Part shown: piece by piece, positions 3,046 to 53,630 of the stretch
How the letters are laid out: every line of letters begins with the position of its first letter
How positions within the stretch are numbered: position 1 is the first letter of the stretch
Assembly: GCA_035578045.1 (NCBI GenBank)
Contig: DATJWP010000188.1
Location: forward strand, 404-64,403
DNA length: 64,000 bases
Source of the DNA: Polyangia bacterium
Lineage (GTDB): Bacteria; Myxococcota_A; Polyangia; Fen-1088
Reading direction: 5' to 3'
Program-made: the position numbers and the translations under genes
Notes under the pieces: generated by a model
The model's input: the letters and a program-made list of their open reading frames with translations, nothing else
Told to the model about the DNA's origin: nothing
The model's database searches: none

Positions 3046-6000
3046 ATGGCAACGCCTTCCCTTTTTGTCTACGCTGATCCACCAATGGGTGAACAATCCC
3101 CGGTCCCCGATCGCGCGTCAACGAGCGATACGGGGGGTTATCCGTTGACTCCGATGCAAGCAGGCATGCTCTTTAGCTCGCTCGTTGCGCCTTCCGCTGG
3201 GTACGATATCGGTCAAGTTGATCTGACGCTTCGCGAACACCTGGACGCCGCCGCGCTGGCGCAGGCCTGGACGTCGGTGGCTCGGCGCCATTGGGCCCTG
3301 TCCTGCCGCGTCGTTTGGGACCGTTTCGACGAGCCGAGGCAGATTCCCGTCCCAGGTGTCTTCGTGCCCGTGGAGGTCATCGACTGCGACGGAGCCGGGC
3401 CCACGGCTATCGAGCAGCAGATCGCGCTCTTCTGCCAGCAGGATCGTTTGCGGGGATTCGATCTTGCCAAGGCTCCGCTGATGCGGGTGACCCTGTTCCA
3501 GGCGGCCGGAGCGCCAACCCGCTTCATCTGCACCTTCCACTACATCCTGATGGACGGCCAGAGCCTGCCTATGGTCCTCACGGAGGTGTTTGCGGTATAC
3601 GATCGTATCCGGCAGGGGGCAACGCCTTCTGGCGCGCCGCCAGCCGGATCGTTTGGGGAGTACGTGCAGTCGCTCGCGCGGCGCGACCGCTCCGCGGGTC
3701 ACGCTCACTTTCGTAAGCTCCTCGAGGGACGAGCGGTTCCGACGAGGCTGGCATTTGCGGAGCTGCCCGATCCGGTCACGGCCGGAGGGGCGCACGCCGT
3801 CATCACGCGTACAACGACCGAGGCGCAGTCCGATGCGATCCGGGCGCTGGCGCGGAGGACTGCGACCAGTGTCGCAGCCGTGGCCCATGCCGCGTGGGCT
3901 CTGGCTCTGTCGCGCTACGCGACCGAGACCGACGTTCTATTCGGAACGGCGTTCTCCGATCGATCCTCGGCGCTGGACGGCGGGGCAGCCTCGATGGTTG
4001 GCCTCATGATCAACGTGCTGCCGATTCGAGCGCACTGCGACGATGAGAGGACCGTGGCCCAGCTTCTATCGGAGCTGGAAGGGCAGCTCGCTTCTCTGCG
4101 CGTTCACGGCCATACGCCCCTCCGGGAGATCGGCGGTCACAACGCCGGGGTTGTGGGTCGCTACTCGCTCGAGACGCTACTGATCGTCGAGCCGGAAGAC
4201 CTTGGCTCCGCCCTCGAACGGATGGGAGGCGAGGCCTGGCGGCATCGCGCGTGCCGGCTATACGAGCAACCGATCGTACCGCTGGCCGTCAAGGTAGCCG
4301 CCGGAACACGGATTAGCGTCCAGGTCCTGTTGGACCTACGCCACTATCGCCAGACCGCGGTCGAACGGCTCGTGACGTCATTCATGCTTGCGTTGGACGA
4401 GCTAGCACGGGATGAAACCCGCGCCCTGGGAGCGGTTTCGGTGATCCCGCCGGGAGACCTGGAAACGACCCGCCGTGTCTGGAATGCGACAAACAGACGA
4501 TTCTCCGATCAACTCCTCGTCCACCAGCTGTTCGAGGCGCAGGTCGGGTCCCGTGGCCAAGCGGTGGCCGTTGAACACGAAGGAGACGCTCTCTCGTATG
4601 AACAGCTGGAGGAGCGTGCGAACCGGGTGGCCCACGCCCTGATTGCCCGCGGGGTGGGTCCCGGCGCTTACGTCGGCATCTGCCTCAGTCGGCGCCCCAG
4701 CTTGGTCGCGGCCATCCTGGGCGTGCTGAAGTCGGGCGCCGCCTACGTGCCACTCGATTCTCAATATCCCCCGGCCCGCCTCGCCGCCATGACCGAAAGC
4801 GTGCACGCCACCCTCCTCGTGACCGAGCAAAGACACGCCCACCTGTTTCCGGAGCTCCCGCAGCTCCTTTTGGATGATGACGACTCCGCCCTCCTGAAGT
4901 TCGCCGAGACCCGACCCGCGATCGAGACGACGCCCTCCGAAGTCTGTTGCGTGTTCTTCACATCTGGCAGCACAGGCACGCCGAACGGCGTGATGGTTTC
5001 GCACCGCGCGATGGTCAACACACTGGAGTGGGTGACCCGTGAGTTCTCCGTCAGGCCCGGCGATCGGCTGCTCTTCGTGACGTCTCCCTGCTTCGACCTC
5101 TCCGTCTACGACATTCTCGGCACCCTCGGTGCAGGTGGCACGGTCGTGATCGCAAACGAGGATCTCCTCCGCAGCCCTTCCGCCCTGGCGAACGCCGTCA
5201 CCGGGCGAGCAATTACGATCTGGAATTCGGCTCCCGCCGCCCTGAACCGCATCCTGCCATTTTTGGCCCCCTTGGCCGCGCCCACGCTTCGTTTGGTGCT
5301 GTCGAGCGGCGATCGGATGCCGACCACCTTGCCGGGCGCGATCCGGGCCCTGTTTCCGGCGGCCGAGATCGTGAATCTTGGTGGCGCCACCGAAGCCGCC
5401 ATCTGGTCGAACTGGTTCCGGGTGAGGGACGTCGATCTCGGCTCTCCCCGAATCCCGTACGGCTGGCCGATCCAGAACTGTCGCTACTACATTCTGGACA
5501 GGGCACTCCGTTCCGTCCCGGTCGGGGTCACCGGAGACCTCTACATCGCCGGGGTCTGCCTGGCCGAGGGGTACCTCAACAATCCCGAGCTCACGGATCG
5601 GCGTTTTCTAATCGACCCTGCGGAGCCCCACGACCGGCTCTACAGAACGGGCGACGTCGCTCGCTACCTAGAGGATGGAACGCTCGATCTGATCGGCCGC
5701 GAGGACCAGCAGATCAAGATCCGAGGGTTCCGCGTGGAGATCGGCGAGGTCGAAGCGGCCTTGGCAGGGATGCCGGGGATCACGCACGCGATCTGCGTCC
5801 CATACCAAGATTCACTGGGTGACCGGTTCCTGGTGGCGTACGTCGTGCCCGCCAATCCGGCCACCGTGAACGCGCAATCCATCAAGGAGTTTCTCGCCCG
5901 GCACCTTCCCGACTTTATGATCCCCGCGCAGATCGTTTTCCTGAAGGAACTTCCCCTCTCGTCGAACGGCAAGCTCGACAGGGCGGCCTTGCGGCGGGAC

Positions 6001-35340: not shown

Positions 35341-36232
35341 GCTCGGGTATTGTACCCTTCCCGCCCTCGTGAGACCCGTTCAACGCGACTGGCGCGGCTT
35401 GCCGGCGGTCCTGGCCGGCGCCTCGGTGCTGGGGATCTCCGCCATTTTCGTGAAGTGGGCGATGGCAGGCGGCGCCTCGGTGCTGACGATCGGTTTCTAT
35501 CGAATGGTGTTCGCGCTGCCGGGCGCGCTGCTGCTGGCGCGCGCCTCGGGCGGGCGGGCGGACGGGATCGGCCGGAAGTGGGCGATCGCGGCCGGCGTCT
35601 TCTTCTCGGCGGACGTGGCCCTCTGGCACCTGGCGATGCGCTACACCTCTGCGGCCAACGCGACGCTGCTGGTGGGGCTGTCGCCCATCTGGGTCGCGCT
35701 GACGGCCGCGCTGGTCTGGCGGCAGCGATTCAGCGCGCTCGGCTGGCTGGGGCAGGCGGTGGGGCTAGGGGGCGCTCTGATCCTGGCGCTGGCGCGCGGC
35801 GCGCGGACCGGCAACGGCCACGGCGAGGCCATCGCCTTCGGCGCCAGCTTCTGCTACGCGGCCTTCACGCTGACCATGAGCCGCGCGCGCCGCACGCTCG
35901 GCGCGCCGCAGGCGCTGGTCTGGATGAGCCTGACCTGCCTGGTCGTCTTCGCGCTGGCGAGCGCGATCGCGCGAGACCCGCTGGCCGGCTACGACGGGCG
36001 CGCCTGGCTGTCGCTGGTCGGGCTGGGGCTGATCGTGCAGCTGCTCGGCTGGTGGCTCAACAGCTGGGGGCTGGGGCACGTCGACGCCGCCACCGGCGCC
36101 ATCGCGCTGCAGATGCAACAGGTGGCGACGCTGTTCCTGTCGGCCTGGCTGCTGGCCGAGCCGCTGCGCCCGCTGGGGATGCTGGGCGGCGGCCTGATCA
36201 TGGCCGGGATCGTGATGGTGGCTCAGATGTAG
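35339..36232 (+). CDS. DMT superfamily (EamA-like) transporter
   Basis: Ten predicted TM helices in two EamA-like halves. The start is uncertain: ATG 35339 overlaps the mepA start, and a downstream GTG is possible. Confidence 0.7.
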   Translation: MLGYCTLPALVRPVQRDWRGLPAVLAGASVLGISAIFVKWAMAGGASVLTIGFYRMVFALPGALLLARASGGRADGIGRKWAIAAGVFFSADVALWHLAMRYTSAANATLLVGLSPIWVALTAALVWRQRFSALGWLGQAVGLGGALILALARGARTGNGHGEAIAFGASFCYAAFTLTMSRARRTLGAPQALVWMSLTCLVVFALASAIARDPLAGYDGRAWLSLVGLGLIVQLLGWWLNSWGLGHVDAATGAIALQMQQVATLFLSAWLLAEPLRPLGMLGGGLIMAGIVMVAQM

Positions 36233-37449
36233 CGCGGCCAGCCCGTGCGGTGGGCGGCCTTGTACCGCCGGTACCAGCGGCAGATCGGGTAGAGGAACGC
36301 GACGACCGCCGCGGCGCCCAGGTACGTCGCGCCCAGCCCCAGCTTTTCGTGCACCCCCAGCAGGCGCGAGCTGTTGGCCAGCAGCGGGAAGTGCAGCAGG
36401 TAAAAGAACATGGGCGTCTGCCCCAGCACCACCAGCAACCCGTTGACGCTGGCCTCGCGGTGCTCGGCGATCCGGAACATGACCGACAGGATCAACGCCA
36501 TCAGCCCCAGCTCCAGCGCGACGTAGGTGATCGACGGGGGGTACTTGCTGACGTGCAGCCACTGCACCGGCGCCGCCGAATCGCGCAGCAGGAACATGTT
36601 CCCGTAGCCGTTGGCGGCGCGCAGCACCAGAAACACCGCCAGCGCCGCCAGGCCGGCCAGGGCGGTGTCGCGCGCCGCGGTGTCGCGCGCCGCGGGCTTC
36701 GTAACCAGGCGCCGCCCCCACGACCAGCCGAGCAGCAGCATCGCCAGCCAGTGGATCGTCGGGTACGCGACGATGACGTGCCCGTGAACACCGCCGGTCA
36801 GCAACAACGACACGGGCCAGGAGTCCGCGACGCCCGCGCTCATCGCCAGCCGGACCAGCAGCTCGCCGCCGGCGATCAGCGCCAGCGCAACCAGCGGCGC
36901 CGCGCGATCGGGGAGCCGCCGCAACGGGATCATCAGGATGTAGGCGCTGCCGATCCCGTACAGGACCTGCAAGACGAACAGGCCGTGATCGATCACGGTC
37001 AGCGAGATCCAGAGCTCGAACGCCGCGATGATCGCGCCGCGCACCAGGATGTACCTGTCGATCCGCCAGGAACCCTGGGAGGGTTCCCGAGACCTCCCCC
37101 GACGACTCCGCTGGGCAGAGCCCAGCTCCGTCAACGCGACGTCGCGCGGGCGGTCGCCGGTAGCGATCTGGCGCGACACCGTGAACGCCAGGCTGACGCC
37201 GGCGAGAAACAGAAACGTCGGCGCGCAGAGATGCGTGATCCAGCGGGTCAGGAACTGCGCCGCCGGCAGCGGCGAGCCGGGGTGGTACATCCAGGCGGCG
37301 TCGGTGAACAGGCGCCCGGCGTTGAACGAGTCCGAGCTGTGGTCGATGGCCATCAACACCATCACCAGCCCGCGCATCCAGTCCAGCGGGGCCAGGCGCG
37401 ACGCGGCGCGCGCCCGCGTCGCATCGGTCGCCCCCTCGGAACCCATCAA
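36223..37449 (-). CDS. DUF1624 / heparan-alpha-glucosaminide N-acetyltransferase-like membrane protein
   Basis: LDWMRGLVMVLMAIDHSS N-terminal motif and multiple TM helices. It carries an in-frame repeat-derived loop (see the repeat at 37059-37137). Confidence 0.65.
   Translation of the reverse strand: MMGSEGATDATRARAASRLAPLDWMRGLVMVLMAIDHSSDSFNAGRLFTDAAWMYHPGSPLPAAQFLTRWITHLCAPTFLFLAGVSLAFTVSRQIATGDRPRDVALTELGSAQRSRRGRSREPSQGSWRIDRYILVRGAIIAAFELWISLTVIDHGLFVLQVLYGIGSAYILMIPLRRLPDRAAPLVALALIAGGELLVRLAMSAGVADSWPVSLLLTGGVHGHVIVAYPTIHWLAMLLLGWSWGRRLVTKPAARDTAARDTALAGLAALAVFLVLRAANGYGNMFLLRDSAAPVQWLHVSKYPPSITYVALELGLMALILSVMFRIAEHREASVNGLLVVLGQTPMFFYLLHFPLLANSSRLLGVHEKLGLGATYLGAAAVVAFLYPICRWYRRYKAAHRTGWPRYI
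37059..37137. repeat. Hairpin-rich short repeat, copy A (REP/MITE-like), inside the DUF1624 CDS
   Basis: Near-identical, in inverted orientation, to both arms of 52005-52122. Contains the palindromes GGAACCCT-ggg-AGGGTTCC and CTGGGC-aga-GCCCAG. Confidence 0.7.
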
Positions 37450-46175: not shown

Positions 46176-47609
46176 ATGAAACTTTCGCGATACACGCAAG
46201 AAACTTTGGGGGTGTCCGGTCACCGCCACTCCGAAGGCACCATTTTCACGGGATTTTCGGCGCTTACGGCACAGCATGCTTTTTGCATTATCAAGCCCGC
46301 TGTGGTGGTTCTGCGCGCGCTCATCCTGGTGGCCCTGGCCGCCTCTGTCGCTTTCGCGGCAGAGCTTCCGCCCGAGCCTACCCTCCCCGCGACGCTGACC
46401 CTGCGGGACGCGCTGGACATCTTCCGGTCGCACGGCCTGGACCTGCTGATCGCGGAGGCGGCGGCCGAGGGGGCGGCGGGCGACGTGATGGCGGCCAACG
46501 CGATCCCGAACCCCAGCGCCTCGGCCGGCTGGTACCACTTCTTCTTCGAGGACGGCACCTTCAACACCCACAACGGCTGGTTCGTCGGGCTGGGCGACTC
46601 GAACGCCATCATGGACACCCTTTCGGGCAAGCGTGGCTTGCGCCGGGGCGTCGCCGAGGCGGCCCTGGCGGCGGCGCGCCTCCAGCGGGCGGACGCCCAG
46701 CGGACGCTGGAGATGCAGGTCAAGCAGCAGTACTTCCAGGTGATGGCCGCGGAGAAGGCGCTGGAGCTCGCGCGCGAAACCGCGGCGTCCACCGGCCGGA
46801 CATTCGAGCTGAACCAGGTCCGGTACAAGAGCGGCGCGATCTCGGAGGTCGACCTGTCGCGCACCGAGGTGGCCAAGCTGGAGGCCGAGCAGGCCGTCGA
46901 CACCTCGACGCAGGCGGTGCTCGTGACGAAGGTCCAGCTCGCCTTCTTGCTCGGGCGGCGGCAGACGTTCGCCGACTTCCAGATCGACGGCAGCCAGCTC
47001 CGCTTCGTGGTCCCGCCGGCGCTCGAAGGCACCACCCCCCAGCGGCTGGTCGATCACGCGCTCGAGGCGCGGCCGGATCTACAAGCGCAAGAGAACCAGC
47101 GGGTGCGGGCCGGTCGCTCCGTCGAGCTGGCGCACCGGCTGCGCTTTCCGGACCTGGGCATCAACGCCGACTATCAGTGGCAGGGCTCGCCCAGCTCCCC
47201 GAACGCCATCTCGCCGCCGACCCTGCAGCTCTCGCTGACCGGCGCCATCCCGCTGCTCTATCAGCAGCAGGGCGAGATCAAGAAGGCCCAGGCCGACGTT
47301 CGCACGCAGGACGCGCAGGCGGCGAAGCTGCGGGCGCAGGTGATGGCCGACGTCGAGAGCGCCTACTCGGGCTGGCTGACGGCGCGGCAGCTGGTGCAGC
47401 GGATGGAGGGGCGGCTGCTCGAGCGCGCGCAGCGCGCCCGCGACCTGGTCGAGTTTCAATATCAGAAGGGGGCGGCGTCGTTGCTGGAGTACCTGGACGC
47501 GCAGCGCACCTACGTGGCGACGAAGGGCGAGTACATTCAAGACCTCGCGGCCTACTGGAACGCGATCTTCCAGATCGAGGCCGCGACGGCGACGGAGCTG
47601 GTTCAATGA
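46176..47609 (+). CDS. TolC/CzcC-family outer membrane efflux protein
   Basis: Two OEP-type repeats, with a signal peptide ending VAFAAE. The real start is possibly GTG 46302, because ATG 46176 adds ~40 aa before the signal peptide. Confidence 0.75.
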   Translation: MKLSRYTQETLGVSGHRHSEGTIFTGFSALTAQHAFCIIKPAVVVLRALILVALAASVAFAAELPPEPTLPATLTLRDALDIFRSHGLDLLIAEAAAEGAAGDVMAANAIPNPSASAGWYHFFFEDGTFNTHNGWFVGLGDSNAIMDTLSGKRGLRRGVAEAALAAARLQRADAQRTLEMQVKQQYFQVMAAEKALELARETAASTGRTFELNQVRYKSGAISEVDLSRTEVAKLEAEQAVDTSTQAVLVTKVQLAFLLGRRQTFADFQIDGSQLRFVVPPALEGTTPQRLVDHALEARPDLQAQENQRVRAGRSVELAHRLRFPDLGINADYQWQGSPSSPNAISPPTLQLSLTGAIPLLYQQQGEIKKAQADVRTQDAQAAKLRAQVMADVESAYSGWLTARQLVQRMEGRLLERAQRARDLVEFQYQKGAASLLEYLDAQRTYVATKGEYIQDLAAYWNAIFQIEAATATELVQ

Positions 47610-48771: not shown

Positions 48772-51700
48772 ATGATCCCCAAGTTAGTCCGCTTCGTCCT
48801 GCGGATGCCGGCCTTCGTGCTGATCTTCGCGGCGGGGCTGGTGGCGCTGGGGCTCTACTGTTATCAGCAGCTCGACATCGAGGCCTACCCCAACCCGGTG
48901 GCGCCGATGATCGAGATCATCACCCAGCCCACCGGCTGGAGCGCCGAGGAGGTCGAGCGCTACGTCACCATCCCGCTGGAGAACGGCCTGAACGGGATGA
49001 TCGACCTGGACCACATCCGGTCGCAGTCGTTGTTCGGCCTGTCCGACGTGAAGTGCTACTTCACCTGGAGCGCCGACTACCACTTCGCGCAGCAGCGGGT
49101 GCTGAACCGGCTGAGCTTCATCACGCTGCCGCCCGGCATGACGCCGCAGCTGTCGCCCTGGAGCGCCATCGGCGAGGTGTTCCGCTACGTCGTCCGCGGC
49201 GAGGGCTACTCGCTGACCGACCTCAAGACGGCCGAGGACTGGGTCCTCGAGCGACAGTTCCGCCAGGCCCCCGGCGTCATCGACGTCGTCAGCTTCGGCG
49301 GCGAGACCAAGGAGTACCACGTCGAGGTCGACCCCTTCCGGCTGAAGGGGCACGGGGTGACGCTGACGCAGCTGGTGAACGCGCTGGCCAACGCCAACCA
49401 GAACGTGGGCGGCCAGCGCCTGACCATCGGCGAGCAGTCCTACGACGTCCGCGGCATCGGCATCATCAAGTCGCTCAGCGACATCCGCGAGGTCGTGCTG
49501 AGCGAGCAGAAGGGGACGCCGGTCCGGGTGCGGGACGTCGCCGAGGTGTCGGTCGGGCACGCGCCCCGGCTGGGCATCGTCGGCAAGGACCTGGAGCCCG
49601 ACGTCGTGCAGGGGACCGTGCTCATGCGCTACGGCGGCGACTCGATGAAGACGCTGCAGTCGGTGCACGAGCGTCTCGACTACATGAACCATTACCATGT
49701 GCTGCCGCCGGGCATGCGCATCGAGCCGTACTACGACCGCGCCACGCTGGTGAAGCTGACGACCCACACCGTCCTCGAGAACCTGGTGATGGGCATGTTC
49801 CTGGTGGCGGTGGTGCTCTGGCTGTTCCTGGGCCACGGGCGGGCCGCGCTGATCACGGCGCTCAACATCCCGCTGGCGCTGATGTGCGCCTTCATCGGGA
49901 TGGTGTTCACCGGCACGCCCGCCAACCTGATCTCGCTGGGCGCGGTCGACTTCGGCATCGTCGTCGATTCGACGGTCATCGTGATGGAGAACGTGTTCCG
50001 GCACATGGCCGCGCCCGGCAAGCGCAACTCGATCGAGCGCATCCTGCTGGCGGCGGGCGAGGTCGGACCGCCGATGTTCTCGTCGACGCTGGTCATCGCG
50101 GTGGCCTTCATCCCGCTGTTCACGCTGTCCGGGGTGTCGGGCGTGATCTTCTCGCCCATGGCCCACACCTACGCCTTCGCGATCGGCGGCGCCATCGTGC
50201 TGTCGCTGACCCTGACGCCGGTGCTGGCCGAGCGCGGCCTGAAGATCGGCACGCTGGGCGACCACGAGCACGACAACTGGCTGATGCGGGCGCTCAAGCG
50301 CTTCTACATCCCGCTGTTCAACTTTTCGCTGCGGCACAAGAAGACGGCCGTGGCCATCGGCACGACCGTGGTCCTGGCCAGCCTGATCGCGGGCACCCGG
50401 CTGGGGCGCGAGTTCATGCCCAAGCTCGAAGAGGGGAACTTCTGGATCCGCGCCACGCTGCCCACGTCGATCTCGCTGGAGCAGTCGTCGAAGTACGTCG
50501 GGCGGATGCGGTCGGTCATCCTGGGCTGCCCCGGCGAGGGGAGCTGCGACCTGGCCAGCCGCAAGCGGCCCGAGATCACCAGCGTCGTGTCGCAGCTGGG
50601 CCGCCCCGACGACGGCACCGACGTCTCGGGGTTCTACAACATCGAGCTCTTCGCGCCGCTCAAGCCGTCCAAGGACTGGCGGCGGGGCGTCACCAAGGAG
50701 CAGATGACCGAGGACCTCTCGCACGAGCTGGGCGAGGCCTTCCCCGGCGTCATCTTCAACTTCTCCCAGATGATCTCGGACAACGTCGAGGAGGCGATGT
50801 CGGGGGTCAAGGGCGAGAACACGGTGAAGGTGTTCGGCCCCGACCTGCGCGTCAACGAGGCCAAGGCCAACGAGATCGTCGACGTGATGGCCAAGATCAA
50901 GGGGGTCGAGGACCTGGCGCTGTTCCCGTCGCTGGGGCAGCCGGACGTGCGCATCACCCCCAACCGCGTGATGTGCGGCCGCTACGGTCTGAACGTGGGC
51001 GACGTGGCCGCCGTCGTGCAGGCGGCCATCGGCGGCCAGGCCGTCACGCAGGTCTACGAGGGGGAGAAGCACTTCGACCTGACCGTCCGCTGGGCCGCGG
51101 CCTATCGCAAGGACCTGAAGGCGATCCGGGACATCCTGGTGGCCACGCCCGACGGGGCGCAGGTGCCGCTGGGGCAGATCGCGCACATCGAGAAGGAAGA
51201 GGGCCCGTCGCTCATCTACCGCGAGGACAACCGGCGGTACGCGCCGGTCAAGTTCTCCGTGCGCGGGCGCGACCTGGCGTCGACCATCCACGAGGCGCAG
51301 GAGGAGATCGAGGCCAAGGTGAAGCTCCCCTACGACACGCACCTCGAGTGGGCGGGCGAGATCAACCAGCTGAACGAGGCGACCGGACGGCTGGCGCTGA
51401 TCATCCCGCTGACGCTGCTGGTGATCGCGATGCTGGTCTATTCGTCGGTGAAGAACTGGAAGGACATGCTGATCGTGCTGGCCGGCATCCCGGTCGCCTG
51501 CACCGGCGGCATCCTGGCGCTGTTCATCACCCGCACGCACTTCTCGATCTCGGCGGCGATGGGGTTCATCTCGATCTTCGGGGTGTCGATCCAGGACGCG
51601 CTGCTGGTGGTCACCTACGCGCAGCGGCTCTGGAACGAGGGGCACGGGCTGGAAGAAGGGGCGCGCGAGGCCGCCGAGCGCTGGCTGCGCCCGGTGCTGA

Positions 51701-52002
51701 TGACCACGTTCGTGGCGATGCTGGGCCTGACCCCGGCCGCGCTCTCCCACGGCATCGGCGCGGACACGCAGAAGCCGCTGGCCATCGTCGTCATCGGCGG
51801 CGCGCTGATCCTGGCGTTGCTGCCGCGCCTGCTGCAGCCGCCGTTGCTGGTGCTGGCGCACCAGCGCGAGCGGCGCTGGACCCGCCGGTCCGAGGCCCTG
51901 CGCGCGCTGGAGGCCCACCGGCGCGCGACGGAGGGGACCAACCCGACGCTCTCGCTCAAGCTGCCGCAGCCGCCGGAGGGCGGGGGCGACTCGCAAGGCT
52001 GA
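48772..52002 (+). CDS. CusA/CzcA-family heavy-metal efflux RND transporter
   Basis: 1076 aa with 12 TM helices. TM4 DFGIVVDSTVIVMEN fits the HME-RND DFG-x3-D-x6-EN signature. Confidence 0.9.
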   Translation: MIPKLVRFVLRMPAFVLIFAAGLVALGLYCYQQLDIEAYPNPVAPMIEIITQPTGWSAEEVERYVTIPLENGLNGMIDLDHIRSQSLFGLSDVKCYFTWSADYHFAQQRVLNRLSFITLPPGMTPQLSPWSAIGEVFRYVVRGEGYSLTDLKTAEDWVLERQFRQAPGVIDVVSFGGETKEYHVEVDPFRLKGHGVTLTQLVNALANANQNVGGQRLTIGEQSYDVRGIGIIKSLSDIREVVLSEQKGTPVRVRDVAEVSVGHAPRLGIVGKDLEPDVVQGTVLMRYGGDSMKTLQSVHERLDYMNHYHVLPPGMRIEPYYDRATLVKLTTHTVLENLVMGMFLVAVVLWLFLGHGRAALITALNIPLALMCAFIGMVFTGTPANLISLGAVDFGIVVDSTVIVMENVFRHMAAPGKRNSIERILLAAGEVGPPMFSSTLVIAVAFIPLFTLSGVSGVIFSPMAHTYAFAIGGAIVLSLTLTPVLAERGLKIGTLGDHEHDNWLMRALKRFYIPLFNFSLRHKKTAVAIGTTVVLASLIAGTRLGREFMPKLEEGNFWIRATLPTSISLEQSSKYVGRMRSVILGCPGEGSCDLASRKRPEITSVVSQLGRPDDGTDVSGFYNIELFAPLKPSKDWRRGVTKEQMTEDLSHELGEAFPGVIFNFSQMISDNVEEAMSGVKGENTVKVFGPDLRVNEAKANEIVDVMAKIKGVEDLALFPSLGQPDVRITPNRVMCGRYGLNVGDVAAVVQAAIGGQAVTQVYEGEKHFDLTVRWAAAYRKDLKAIRDILVATPDGAQVPLGQIAHIEKEEGPSLIYREDNRRYAPVKFSVRGRDLASTIHEAQEEIEAKVKLPYDTHLEWAGEINQLNEATGRLALIIPLTLLVIAMLVYSSVKNWKDMLIVLAGIPVACTGGILALFITRTHFSISAAMGFISIFGVSIQDALLVVTYAQRLWNEGHGLEEGAREAAERWLRPVLMTTFVAMLGLTPAALSHGIGADTQKPLAIVVIGGALILALLPRLLQPPLLVLAHQRERRWTRRSEALRALEAHRRATEGTNPTLSLKLPQPPEGGGDSQG

Positions 52003-52004
52003 AC

Positions 52005-52122
52005 GCGTTGACGGAGCTGGGCTTTGCCCAGCCCGGGGTCCCCGCGAAGGTCCGCCTTCGCGGGGTGGTTTGGAGTCGTCGCGGGAGGTTCAAGGAACCC
52101 TCCCAGGGTTCCTGTCTGATCG
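52005..52122. repeat. Hairpin-rich short repeat, copy B (REP/MITE-like), with an extra internal 11-bp stem-loop
   Basis: The arms match copy A in inverted orientation. The internal CCCCGCGAAGG-tccg-CCTTCGCGGGG (52040-52065) is absent from copy A. The repeat spans the czcA / HTTM convergent junction. Confidence 0.7.
52040..52073 (+). terminator. Possible terminator for the efflux operon (11-bp GC stem, 4-nt loop, then TGGTTTGG)
   Basis: Strong stem 38 nt after the czcA stop. The U-tract is weak. Confidence 0.35.
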
Positions 52123-53007
52123 AAAAAGCTTCTTGAGCCATCGCTCGGGCATGTAGCACGCGAGCAACAGCGTGCTCATCAGCAGCGCGAACCAGATCAC
52201 CGGACCGAACATCAGCCCGATGAGCGCGTGCATCGACAGCGCGGCCACGACGGCGACGGGCCGGGTCCAGCGCAGCGCGAACCAGAGGGGCGCCAGCACC
52301 TCGAAGGCCAGCGACAGGTACTGCAGCCCCTGCCACCCCCAGGCCGGCACCGCCCGCCCCAGCGCCCACGACACGATGGTCTGGTAGTTGTCGTGCAGGT
52401 GGCTCCAGAGCACGTCGCCGCCCAGCCAGTCGCCGCGCAGCTTGGCGATCCCCGCGCCCGAGTACATCGCCGCCAGGAACACCTGGAAGAAGCGGATCAC
52501 GCCGCCCGAGACGTGCGTCGGCAGCAGCTCGCCGGGGTGTTTGCGACGCCGCAGCCAGGCATCCACGCTGTAACGCGCCCCGGATGGCGTCAGGCAGAGC
52601 GCCAGCGACAGCATCGGCCCCAGCTTGCTGACCGTGAACGCCTCCAGCCGGTCGGCCAGCGCGACGTAGGCCAGCAACGTCGCGAAGACCGCGGCGGCCG
52701 CGCGCGTGAACAGCCCCGCCGCCACGCACAGGCCCGACACCACCATGGCGACGCCGATCGCCCAGGCCAGGCCGATCGGCACCGGCGGGATGTAGAGCGG
52801 CTGGCGCCAGTCGCCGCCCAGGTCGGGGACCCGGAAGCCGGCGGCGCTGAGCCATTCGTCCGCGTGCGCGATGCGCGAGGACTGAAACGCGAGCAGCACC
52901 AGCGGCAGCACGATGCGCGCCAGGGCCAGCCGCTCGATCGGCTGCGGCGCGTCCAGCCAGGCGCGAAGCTTCTCGGTCCAGGTCTGCTGGACGACGGCCT
53001 GCCTCAT
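52090..53007 (-). CDS. HTTM (vitamin K-dependent gamma-carboxylase-like) domain membrane protein
   Basis: N-terminus WLDAPQPIERLALARIVLPLVLLAFQ..., multi-TM. ATGA overlap with the upstream gene. The track ORF start at 53553 is an extension across that gene. Confidence 0.65.
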   Translation of the reverse strand: MRQAVVQQTWTEKLRAWLDAPQPIERLALARIVLPLVLLAFQSSRIAHADEWLSAAGFRVPDLGGDWRQPLYIPPVPIGLAWAIGVAMVVSGLCVAAGLFTRAAAAVFATLLAYVALADRLEAFTVSKLGPMLSLALCLTPSGARYSVDAWLRRRKHPGELLPTHVSGGVIRFFQVFLAAMYSGAGIAKLRGDWLGGDVLWSHLHDNYQTIVSWALGRAVPAWGWQGLQYLSLAFEVLAPLWFALRWTRPVAVVAALSMHALIGLMFGPVIWFALLMSTLLLACYMPERWLKKLFRSDRNPGRVP

Positions 53008-53630
53008 GGCGACTTGCGCTCCGCGCAACGTTGCTCGCGCTCGGCCGACCCCGTGACGTACCAGTACTTGCGCTGCACCTCTTGCGGGTACTCGGACAGC
53101 GGCAGCCGCTGGTAGCGCGGCGCGGGCGTCCCGGCCGGCGGAATGGGGATGCGCAAGCTCAGCAGCATCACGCCGCCGATCGGCTGGTCGGGGTGCAGTC
53201 GGTTCTGCTCGCGCTCGAGGTACGCGTCCAGCGCCTCGAGCACGCGCCGCTGGCGATAGTGAAAGAACATCGCGCGATAAAAACGGTTCTCCTTGTCGTC
53301 GCGCCGGATCGGGAAGAACGGGCGAACGTCCAGCTCCTCGAAGCGGCCGAGATCGCACCGCCACGCTTCGGCCCGCCATTCGATGACGTCGCGCGCCGCG
53401 TGGGGAAACAGCTCGGCCTCCTGCACGAAGAAGCGCAGCGGCAGCGGCAAGATCACGTCGGCGAGCTTGAGCCCCGCGCCCTCGAGCCAGACCAGCAGGG
53501 CGTAGGCGGCGGCCAGGACCGTGACCAGGGTCCTGGCGCGACGCGAGAGCCACGGCTGCGCCACGACACGCCCATCCGTCGGTCGTGCCCCGGCCTTGCC
53601 GGGCTTCGCCGTGCTCGAGCCCGCCGCCAT
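53004..53630 (-). CDS. Hypothetical membrane-anchored protein, translationally coupled to the HTTM gene
   Basis: One N-terminal TM helix (TLVTVLAAAYALLVWL). G/C-rich third positions. No family recognised. Confidence 0.5.
   Translation of the reverse strand: MAAGSSTAKPGKAGARPTDGRVVAQPWLSRRARTLVTVLAAAYALLVWLEGAGLKLADVILPLPLRFFVQEAELFPHAARDVIEWRAEAWRCDLGRFEELDVRPFFPIRRDDKENRFYRAMFFHYRQRRVLEALDAYLEREQNRLHPDQPIGGVMLLSLRIPIPPAGTPAPRYQRLPLSEYPQEVQRKYWYVTGSAEREQRCAERKSP

Follow-up and report, generated by a model that had tools for sequence, protein, structure and literature searches.

A probable non-autonomous mobile repeat of Polyangia that lies in frame within protein-coding genes

The Correia elements (CREE) of Neisseria have terminal inverted repeats of about 26 bp, an IHF site and a TA duplication. 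To our knowledge, in-frame "selfish palindromes" have long been presented as a peculiarity of Rickettsia. Many copies of the Rickettsia palindromic elements, RPE-1 to RPE-10 (Ogata et al. 2000, 2002), are reported to lie in frame in unrelated housekeeping genes (PMC10969869). Most bacterial MITEs have terminal inverted repeats of 4-30 bp and TA at their termini, with IHF sites also reported, and QMITE1 of Coxiella burnetii is drawn with terminal inverted repeats, direct repeats and a potential IHF site (PMC5896051). Our search of the literature returned no report of MITE- or REP-like elements in myxobacteria. Here we describe a block of 78 nt in a 64,000-nt stretch of DNA (hereafter the window) from the metagenome-assembled genome (MAG) of a Polyangia bacterium (6.1 Mb, 70% G+C, 87% complete, 207 contigs). 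Judging from comparisons of sequences, this block is very probably a copy of a small, non-autonomous and recently mobile Polyangia repeat that was inserted in coding sequence and is translated.

The block is located at positions 37059-37138 of the window, on the minus strand, in a gene for a polytopic membrane protein (Table 1). Relative to orthologues without it, the block adds 78 nt, or 26 codons, and the reading frame stays open through it, adding 26 residues that read VALTELGSAQRSRRGRSREPSQGSWR. On the gene strand the site has the sequence GACGT-CG-CGTTGACGGAGCTGGGCTCTGCCCAGCGGAGTCGTCGGGGGAGGTCTCGGGAACCCTCCCAGGGTTCCTGGCGGAT-CG-ACAGG. The host ORF encodes 408 aa, with a probable start one codon in, and its insert-free orthologues have 381 aa. 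Assignment of the host protein to HGSNAT_cat (PF07786, formerly DUF1624) was based on a Pfam match of 49.6 bits versus a cut-off of 22 (E 4.9e-13, residues 18-273) that spans the insert; thousands of homologues were identified, and those that are named are from "Polyangia bacterium" MAGs. An AlphaFold2 model of the host protein had a mean pLDDT of 80 and a pTM of 0.82, and in it residues 100-124, between helices 63-96 and 125-152, had a pLDDT of ~35, on which basis the added peptide is predicted to be a floppy loop between two transmembrane helices. These results agree with a first-pass annotation of the window, which had placed the segment within a DUF1624 coding sequence, in an open frame and in a predicted loop between transmembrane helices. 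The two palindromes it had named, that of hairpin 2 (Table 1) and CTGGGC/GCCCAG, are both present. The repeat it had delimited as 79 nt is real, and its size is now revised to an insert of 78 nt, made up of the 76-nt core and one CG.

The same annotation had considered the segment to be nearly identical, in inverted orientation, to the two arms of a sequence at 52005-52122, and this was borne out by a repeat search, in which 37058-37109 paired with 52072-52123 (52 nt, 87% complementary) and 37110-37138 with 52004-52032 (29 nt, 97% complementary). The window consequently holds one short and one long copy in opposite orientations, the long copy having 39 extra nt. The long copy is located between two convergent genes: it begins 2 nt past the TGA of an RND (czcA-like) pump gene (48772-52002), and it supplies the end of the gene at 52090-53553, for which the encoded peptide is the element's minus frame 0.

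Table 1. Coordinates of the two repeat copies in the window and of the gene that hosts the short copy
Feature	Position in window	Strand	Description and basis
Host gene, HGSNAT_cat (DUF1624) / acyltransferase-3 type polytopic membrane protein	36223..37449	-	Pfam, homologues, alignment, AlphaFold2
Core of short (subfamily A) copy	37061..37136	-	76 nt; gene strand CGTTGACGGAG...CCTGGCGGAT; filled/empty alignment with L033, L034
CG, upstream junction (gene orientation)	37137..37138	-	Pairs with CG at 37059-37060; one of the two CGs is the extra copy
CG, downstream junction, then AC	37059..37060	-	Target AT·CG·AC; filled/empty alignments, target logo
Hairpin 1	37104..37132	-	GACGGAGCTGGGC-TCT-GCCCAGCGGAGTC; 13-position stem with conserved internal GGA/GGA mismatch, inside outer CGC/GCG stem; also in single-sequence fold
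Hairpin 2	37069..37087	-	GGAACCCT-CCC-AGGGTTCC; sequence, consensus and single-sequence folds
Long variant copy	52004..52122	+	CG + 115-nt core + CG; 117 nt counted CG to CG
Extra 39-nt hairpin module	52034..52072	+	11-bp GC stem, nested inside outer stem of long variant
Last 10 codons (RSDRNPGRVP) and TGA stop of gene 52090-53553	52090..52122	-	Supplied by long copy; ORF list

Alignment of orthologues indicated that the loop is lineage-specific. The block was absent from the orthologues of 15 same-genus genomes and from 28 metagenome orthologues (P0002-P0024 and P0026-P0030), with identities of up to 87%, and in alignments of 19 and then 48 proteins every lineage except three had an uninterrupted ...GDRPRD·IDRY... 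(here and below, raised dots mark the site and the borders of the CG). The DNA of two metagenome contigs, L033 and L034, in which the gene order matches that of the window (SHMT, DUF1624, EamA), has a clean 78-nt gap, CCGCGCGAC·ATCGAC, such that the empty site is CGCGAC-AT-CG-AC and the filled site is GACGT-CG-(76 nt)-CG-AC. The exceptions, in addition to the window, are two further species of the genus, G041 (which corresponds to the JGI metagenome contig L032) and G023, both of which carry the element at the identical codon position and in the same orientation. Such coincidence would be expected if the 26-residue loop were ancestral to the DUF1624 orthologues of the group and had been precisely lost in most lineages, with the czcA-proximal and other copies being derived or unrelated. 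We consider that history very unlikely. All of the empty sites are equal in length and have no remnant of the element, most of the 85 copies of the family (described below) are outside the DUF1624 gene, and in a maximum-likelihood protein tree calculated with the insert removed the three filled lineages were not monophyletic, each of them having closer relatives with empty sites. In addition, the window copy is a 78-nt member of subfamily A, whereas the copies of G041 and G023 are 81-nt subfamily-B types that are 76% and 62% identical to it. The scattering of the filled lineages in the tree and their different subfamilies indicate that the DUF1624 site was hit at least two times independently. 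A contig from an independent ENA assembly (L031), 99.9% identical to the window over 7 kb, carries a partial element at this position; it differs from the window by a 42-nt in-frame deletion of hairpin 1 and by two substitutions, all of them within the element.

The repeat proved to be abundant in its own genome. A BLAST search with the block identified at least 40 matches (E down to 4e-28), and three rounds of nhmmer increased the number to 85 non-overlapping copies; a four-unit tandem array was found on contig C134. The window copy is 91% identical to the subfamily A consensus. The element consists of a 76- or 79-nt core, in which an outer CGC/GCG stem encloses hairpin 1 and is followed by hairpin 2, with a third hairpin of 39 nt in some copies. 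As the 39-nt hairpin was found only within the genome's four long copies, with no free occurrence outside them, we rejected its designation as an independent nested repeat. Searches with a covariance model of the element (R1) identified 33 to more than 100 copies per genome, the number scored being capped at 102, in each of the 24 same-genus genomes searched. The element is present in all 25 other genomes of the genus, every member of which is an uncultured soil MAG. Across the class, R1 matched 47 of the 301 genomes sampled and the remaining 254 were negative; the positive genomes comprised all of those sampled from the genus and 28 of 35 from other genera of its family (f1), plus members of families f12, f20 and f29.

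To call copies inside genes, a codon-usage score was trained on 942 long ORFs of the genome and applied to the flanks of every copy. At least 21 of the 85 copies lie in frame inside genes, their two flanks sharing a coding frame and an ORF spanning the copy, and ~7 further copies are crossed by an ORF whose coding score is weaker on one side; because these calls were derived from a codon-usage score and not from a gene finder, the in-gene fraction is approximate, at 21 to ~31 of 85. Pfam domains flank or span the insert in at least 13 of the in-gene copies. The copies with Pfam support are in cysS, polA, mpl, dinB, aspartokinase-ACT, lhr, ureF, DUF72, a urea-carboxylase-type carboxyltransferase (CT), an amidohydrolase, hlyD, hpt and glgX-malQ, as well as in the DUF1624 gene. 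Since cysS is single-copy in the assembly, its insert-bearing allele must work.

Two properties of the element are consistent with its presence inside so many genes. Firstly, measured from CG to CG, 33 of the 41 measurable copies are 78, 81, 117 or 120 nt long, all multiples of three. The same was observed for 22 of 27 copies outside genes, and therefore the addition of whole codons is a property of the family as a whole and not only of the copies that survive in genes. Secondly, five of the six frames are free of stop codons in the consensus sequences of both subfamilies, and all five open frames, in both orientations, are used in genes; the sixth frame, which has stops, is never used.

Because the MAG is 87% complete and split into 207 contigs, and short-read assemblies often break or mis-join at repeats, the insert might be suspected of having arisen during metagenome assembly or binning, as a repeat-induced chimera. 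The chance of this appears to be negligible: the ENA contig shows a partial element there too, the JGI contig and the GTDB genome (L032 and G041) agree with each other, the frame is preserved in all 21 genes, and genus assemblies of only 5 to 10 contigs hold 97 to more than 100 copies each.

The secondary structure of the element is conserved. RNAalifold analysis of 67 full copies identified compensatory changes, which keep both hairpins, at 12 of the 20 consensus pairs. In hairpin 1, for instance, UA is changed to CG in 12 copies and AU to GC in 10, and the pair that closes the stem of hairpin 2 covaries as GC in 30 copies, AU in 20 and CG in 8. In addition, the GGA/GGA mismatch of hairpin 1 is conserved on one strand only. 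A stop codon is located 0-20 nt before the element in 17 copies, and 21 nt before it in one more, and in three copies, including the window's second copy, the flanking gene ends inside the element. The long copy, folded as single-stranded DNA, has a free energy of -37.3 kcal/mol (z = -5.4). All of these observations would suit a repeat that is chiefly a functional structured element (a REP-like mRNA stabiliser, a terminator or a protein-binding site), selected at gene ends and present within genes by accident. We regard this as improbable. The covariation may equally reflect the needs of a mobilising enzyme, and relative to genes both orientations, as well as five frames, are represented among the copies. 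No T-run follows either hairpin, an Rfam scan of the region produced chance-level matches only, and the window copy has a folding energy of -45 kcal/mol as RNA, a modest improvement on shuffled sequences (z = -2.05). Furthermore, the presence and absence of the element between species at otherwise conserved sites points to spread rather than to a conserved function.

Our preferred reading, that of a recently mobile repeat, gained additional support from other genes. For nine other in-gene copies, the joined flanks were used as one query each against 26 genomes of the genus, and among the matches listed there was no element-sized gap across the junctions, with only the polA linker varying in length. 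The nine sites listed are thus judged from these matches to be empty in relatives, and on that basis the insertions appear to be recent and species-specific. Clean filled/empty DNA alignments were obtained for six sites (cysS, aspartokinase, DUF72, mpl, C47 and a periplasmic-binding protein), and in 6 of 6 filled/empty pairs the dinucleotide CG was the sole sequence common to both junctions. Each insertion equals the core plus one CG, producing the additions of 78, 81, 117 or 120 nt.

The target of insertion is also biased. The logo of the flanks is G-R-T·CG·W-C, with T at position -1 in 51 of 72 copies, a purine at position -2 in 60 of 72 and, despite the 70% G+C of the genome, A or T at position +1 in 33 of 41. 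The DUF1624 site (GAC/GCG-AT·CG·AC) matches this preferred target and sits in a tolerant loop. At the left junction the base that precedes the CG derives from the target, and the T that precedes the right CG is part of the element. A duplication of TCG (three nt) or longer was rejected, given that the base before the CG differs between left and right, e.g., G versus T at aspartokinase. It should be noted that the common CG could be chance microhomology, since there are 1.8 million CG sites in the genome, yet it is present at all six clean junctions. We detected no terminal inverted repeats: when the 5' end CGCGTTGACGG was compared with the reverse complement of the 3' end CGATCAGACAGG, 6-7 of the first 11 positions matched, and the palindromes of the element are internal. 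The CG-flanked junctions are compatible with a 2-nt staggered cut at a roughly symmetric T·CG·A (that is, a 2-bp duplication), with a CG crossover core, or with single-strand insertion 3' of ...GATCG.

The last of these options corresponds to movement of the element as single-stranded DNA by an HUH/Y1 transposase, either as an IS200/IS605-derived palindrome-associated element or as a REP/RAYT system, whereby the element would insert 3' of ...GATCG and itself end in GATCG, with no true duplication. Several features of the element are in keeping with such a process, namely that there are no terminal inverted repeats, that a hairpin is located near each end (hairpin 2 ending 10 nt before the right end), and that the element ends on the right in the sequence favoured for the left half of the target (GAT-CG). 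By reasoning only, a 78-nt element would also be physically easier to move single-stranded than as a double-stranded circle. Nevertheless, we consider this route unlikely. The Y1_Tnp domain (PF01797) was not found in the element's own genome or in 15 of the 26 genus genomes, all of which bear the element, although this is weak evidence as the MAGs are incomplete. Where PF01797 genes are present they are not flanked by the element, there being none within 1.5 kb of the eight PF01797 loci (R1, E up to 1). In addition, the 4-5 nt just 5' of hairpin 2, the position of the guide in IS608-type elements, are the most variable part of the element, and the roughly symmetric target logo (T·CG·A) better suits a dimeric cut-and-paste enzyme. 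A larger parent element was likewise not found in the own genome, where the partial copies gave no pairs of left and right halves. The 3.4-kb stretch between two inverted copies on contig C191 contains ordinary genes (a glycerol-kinase-like gene and a hydrolase gene).

We propose that an enzyme supplied in trans would insert the element at the CG within the partly palindromic G-R-T·CG·W-C target, either through a 2-nt staggered cut that duplicates the CG or through strand exchange at a CG core. Selection would then purge those copies that break a frame or are otherwise harmful. The survivors would be those located in spacers, very often directly behind a stop codon, those from which a gene takes its C-terminal codons and its stop, and those lying in frame in loops and linkers that tolerate them.

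We also speculate, with considerable reservation, that this is a "coding-competent" mobile element that has been shaped by selection on the element itself. Its modules would be whole-codon units (76+2 and 79+2 nt, with an additional 39 nt) with five stop-free frames, so that any copy landing in a tolerant loop would survive, and the element would steadily supply a whole family of Polyangia with new loops, linkers and C-termini for their proteins. The enzyme that moves it, as yet undescribed, would act without terminal inverted repeats, recognise the pair of internal hairpins and use T·CG·A as the core for insertion. If this were true, the T·CG·A preference would account for the repeated hits at one codon in different species.

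Several consequences follow for the study of these genomes. In-frame behavior is frequent in these free-living soil myxobacteria of high G+C, and affects polA and the single-copy gene cysS among others, which suggests that it is a general outcome wherever an active short repeat adds whole codons and lacks stops. The dozens of natural filled/empty pairs, in ~25 species, are material with which to assess how proteins tolerate random loops of 26-27 residues, and are also useful for following loop decay (as in the 42-nt in-frame deletion of the 99.9%-identical strain) and the rewriting of gene ends. For annotation, the inserts inflate protein lengths and can mislead alignments and calls of starts and stops in Polyangia MAGs. 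Lastly, CG-flanked ends that have no inverted repeats point to a mobilising enzyme that is yet to be found.

Among the systems with which the Polyangia element can be compared are the RPEs. Both are short, dispersed palindromic repeats with a large in-frame share that is read as extra peptide, and the RPEs, too, are not known to have a transposase (PMC10969869). The defining behavior of RPEs, a palindromic repeat in frame in many unrelated protein genes, was observed for 21 of the 85 copies. The two differ in that no sequence relation was found, as judged by Rfam and peptide patterns, and in that the Polyangia element is 78-120 nt long versus about 100-150 nt for the RPEs (PMC10969869). Its length classes are all multiples of three and CG is common to its junctions. 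A conserved peptide of the RPE type was not found among the element's peptides, which differ by frame; in place of a single conserved peptide the element uses five frames and both orientations. The host, a free-living soil bacterium with a 6-Mb genome of 70% G+C, belongs to another phylum.

The Correia elements are similarly high-copy repeats of ~100 nt, which can occur within or beside genes and change the ends of these. Unlike them, and unlike classical MITEs, the Polyangia element lacks terminal inverted repeats, and the dinucleotide at its flanks is CG instead of TA. The resemblance to RPEs and Correia elements proposed in the first-pass annotation consequently holds for the RPE-like in-frame behavior, and does not extend to membership of either family, with neither of which it was found to have sequence in common. 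QMITE1 and QMITE2 copies likewise form in-frame fusions with genes, to which they contribute C-terminal residues and stop codons, and the peptides that they encode are basic (PMC5896051). Their mid-gene in-frame cases are mostly in hypothetical proteins (PMC5896051), whereas those of the Polyangia element include cysS, polA and mpl.

Like the Polyangia element, the REP/REPIN sequences associated with RAYT (Y1) genes are GC-rich hairpin repeats that are common just past stop codons and between convergent genes and are sometimes in tandem. REPs, however, are extragenic by definition and are tied to a REP-flanked RAYT gene, whereas about one quarter of the Polyangia copies are intragenic, each unit has two different hairpins, and no Y1 gene flanked by the element was found. 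In a comparison with IS200/IS605-derived palindrome-associated elements, hairpins were seen near both ends of the Polyangia element, along with a target, (G)AT-CG, that equals its right end, variable bases at the guide position and no linked Y1 gene. Taken together, these comparisons place the Polyangia element as a new RPE-like repeat, one that behaves as do the Rickettsia RPEs and some Coxiella MITEs but is outside the RPE, Correia and REP/RAYT families.

The long copy of the element in the window fills the entire spacer between two convergent genes. The RND pump gene ends in a TGA, and the element begins 2 nt further on. For the gene on the opposite strand, the element encodes both the stop and the final ten residues (RSDRNPGRVP), so the C-terminus of that protein is derived from the element. 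At the other end of a reading frame, a copy elsewhere in the same genome occupies the very 5' terminus of an ORF resembling glycerol kinase (FGGY) and precedes its conserved DQGTTGT motif. The real start codon of this ORF may lie downstream of the element; alternatively, the protein may gain an N-terminal extension from the element.

Element copies considered here and their locations
Feature	Sequence	Position	Context
Long copy	window	52004-52122	between genes 48772-52002 (+) and 52090-53553 (-)
5'-end copy	C191 (same genome)	46952-47049	FGGY ORF
Deletion variant	L031 (ENA ERZ27256576, contig k141_1074855)	about 3300-3345 (window 37097-37140)	DUF1624 locus
Tandem array, four head-to-tail units	C134 (same genome)	2427-2745	outside the window

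The independently assembled metagenome contig L031 is 99.9% identical to the window across 7 kb, with about 3 to 5 differences in that whole length outside the element. Within the element, hairpin 1 has been lost through a 42-nt in-frame deletion and the remainder carries two substitutions. Given so few differences elsewhere, either changes are concentrated locally in the element, as in a hot spot, or the hairpin was collapsed in assembly.

The units of the tandem array belong to an 81-nt subfamily variant, and the array lies in a non-coding stretch. Because every unit terminates in GAT-CG, the preferred insertion target, the array could have arisen either through slippage or through repeated insertion of the element into its own end.

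In most copies, hairpin 1 (e.g. window 37104-37132) has GGAG in both arms, and the resulting internal mismatch (G.A / G.G / A.G) is conserved on one strand only; in a few copies the hairpin has instead become perfectly paired (CCAAGC/GCTTGG, GCCGC/GCGGC). This strand asymmetry hints that the recognised form of the element is a single strand, of either DNA or RNA.

The near-complete assembly of a same-genus genome (G009, 5 contigs) contains 15 weak matches (24-35 bits) to the Y1_Tnp transposase domain PF01797, in ORFs 160-740 aa long; the number in most of the genus's short-read MAGs is zero or one. At the single G009 locus examined, no copy of the element was found beside the Y1-like gene. This multi-copy family of Y1-like genes may drop out of fragmented MAGs.
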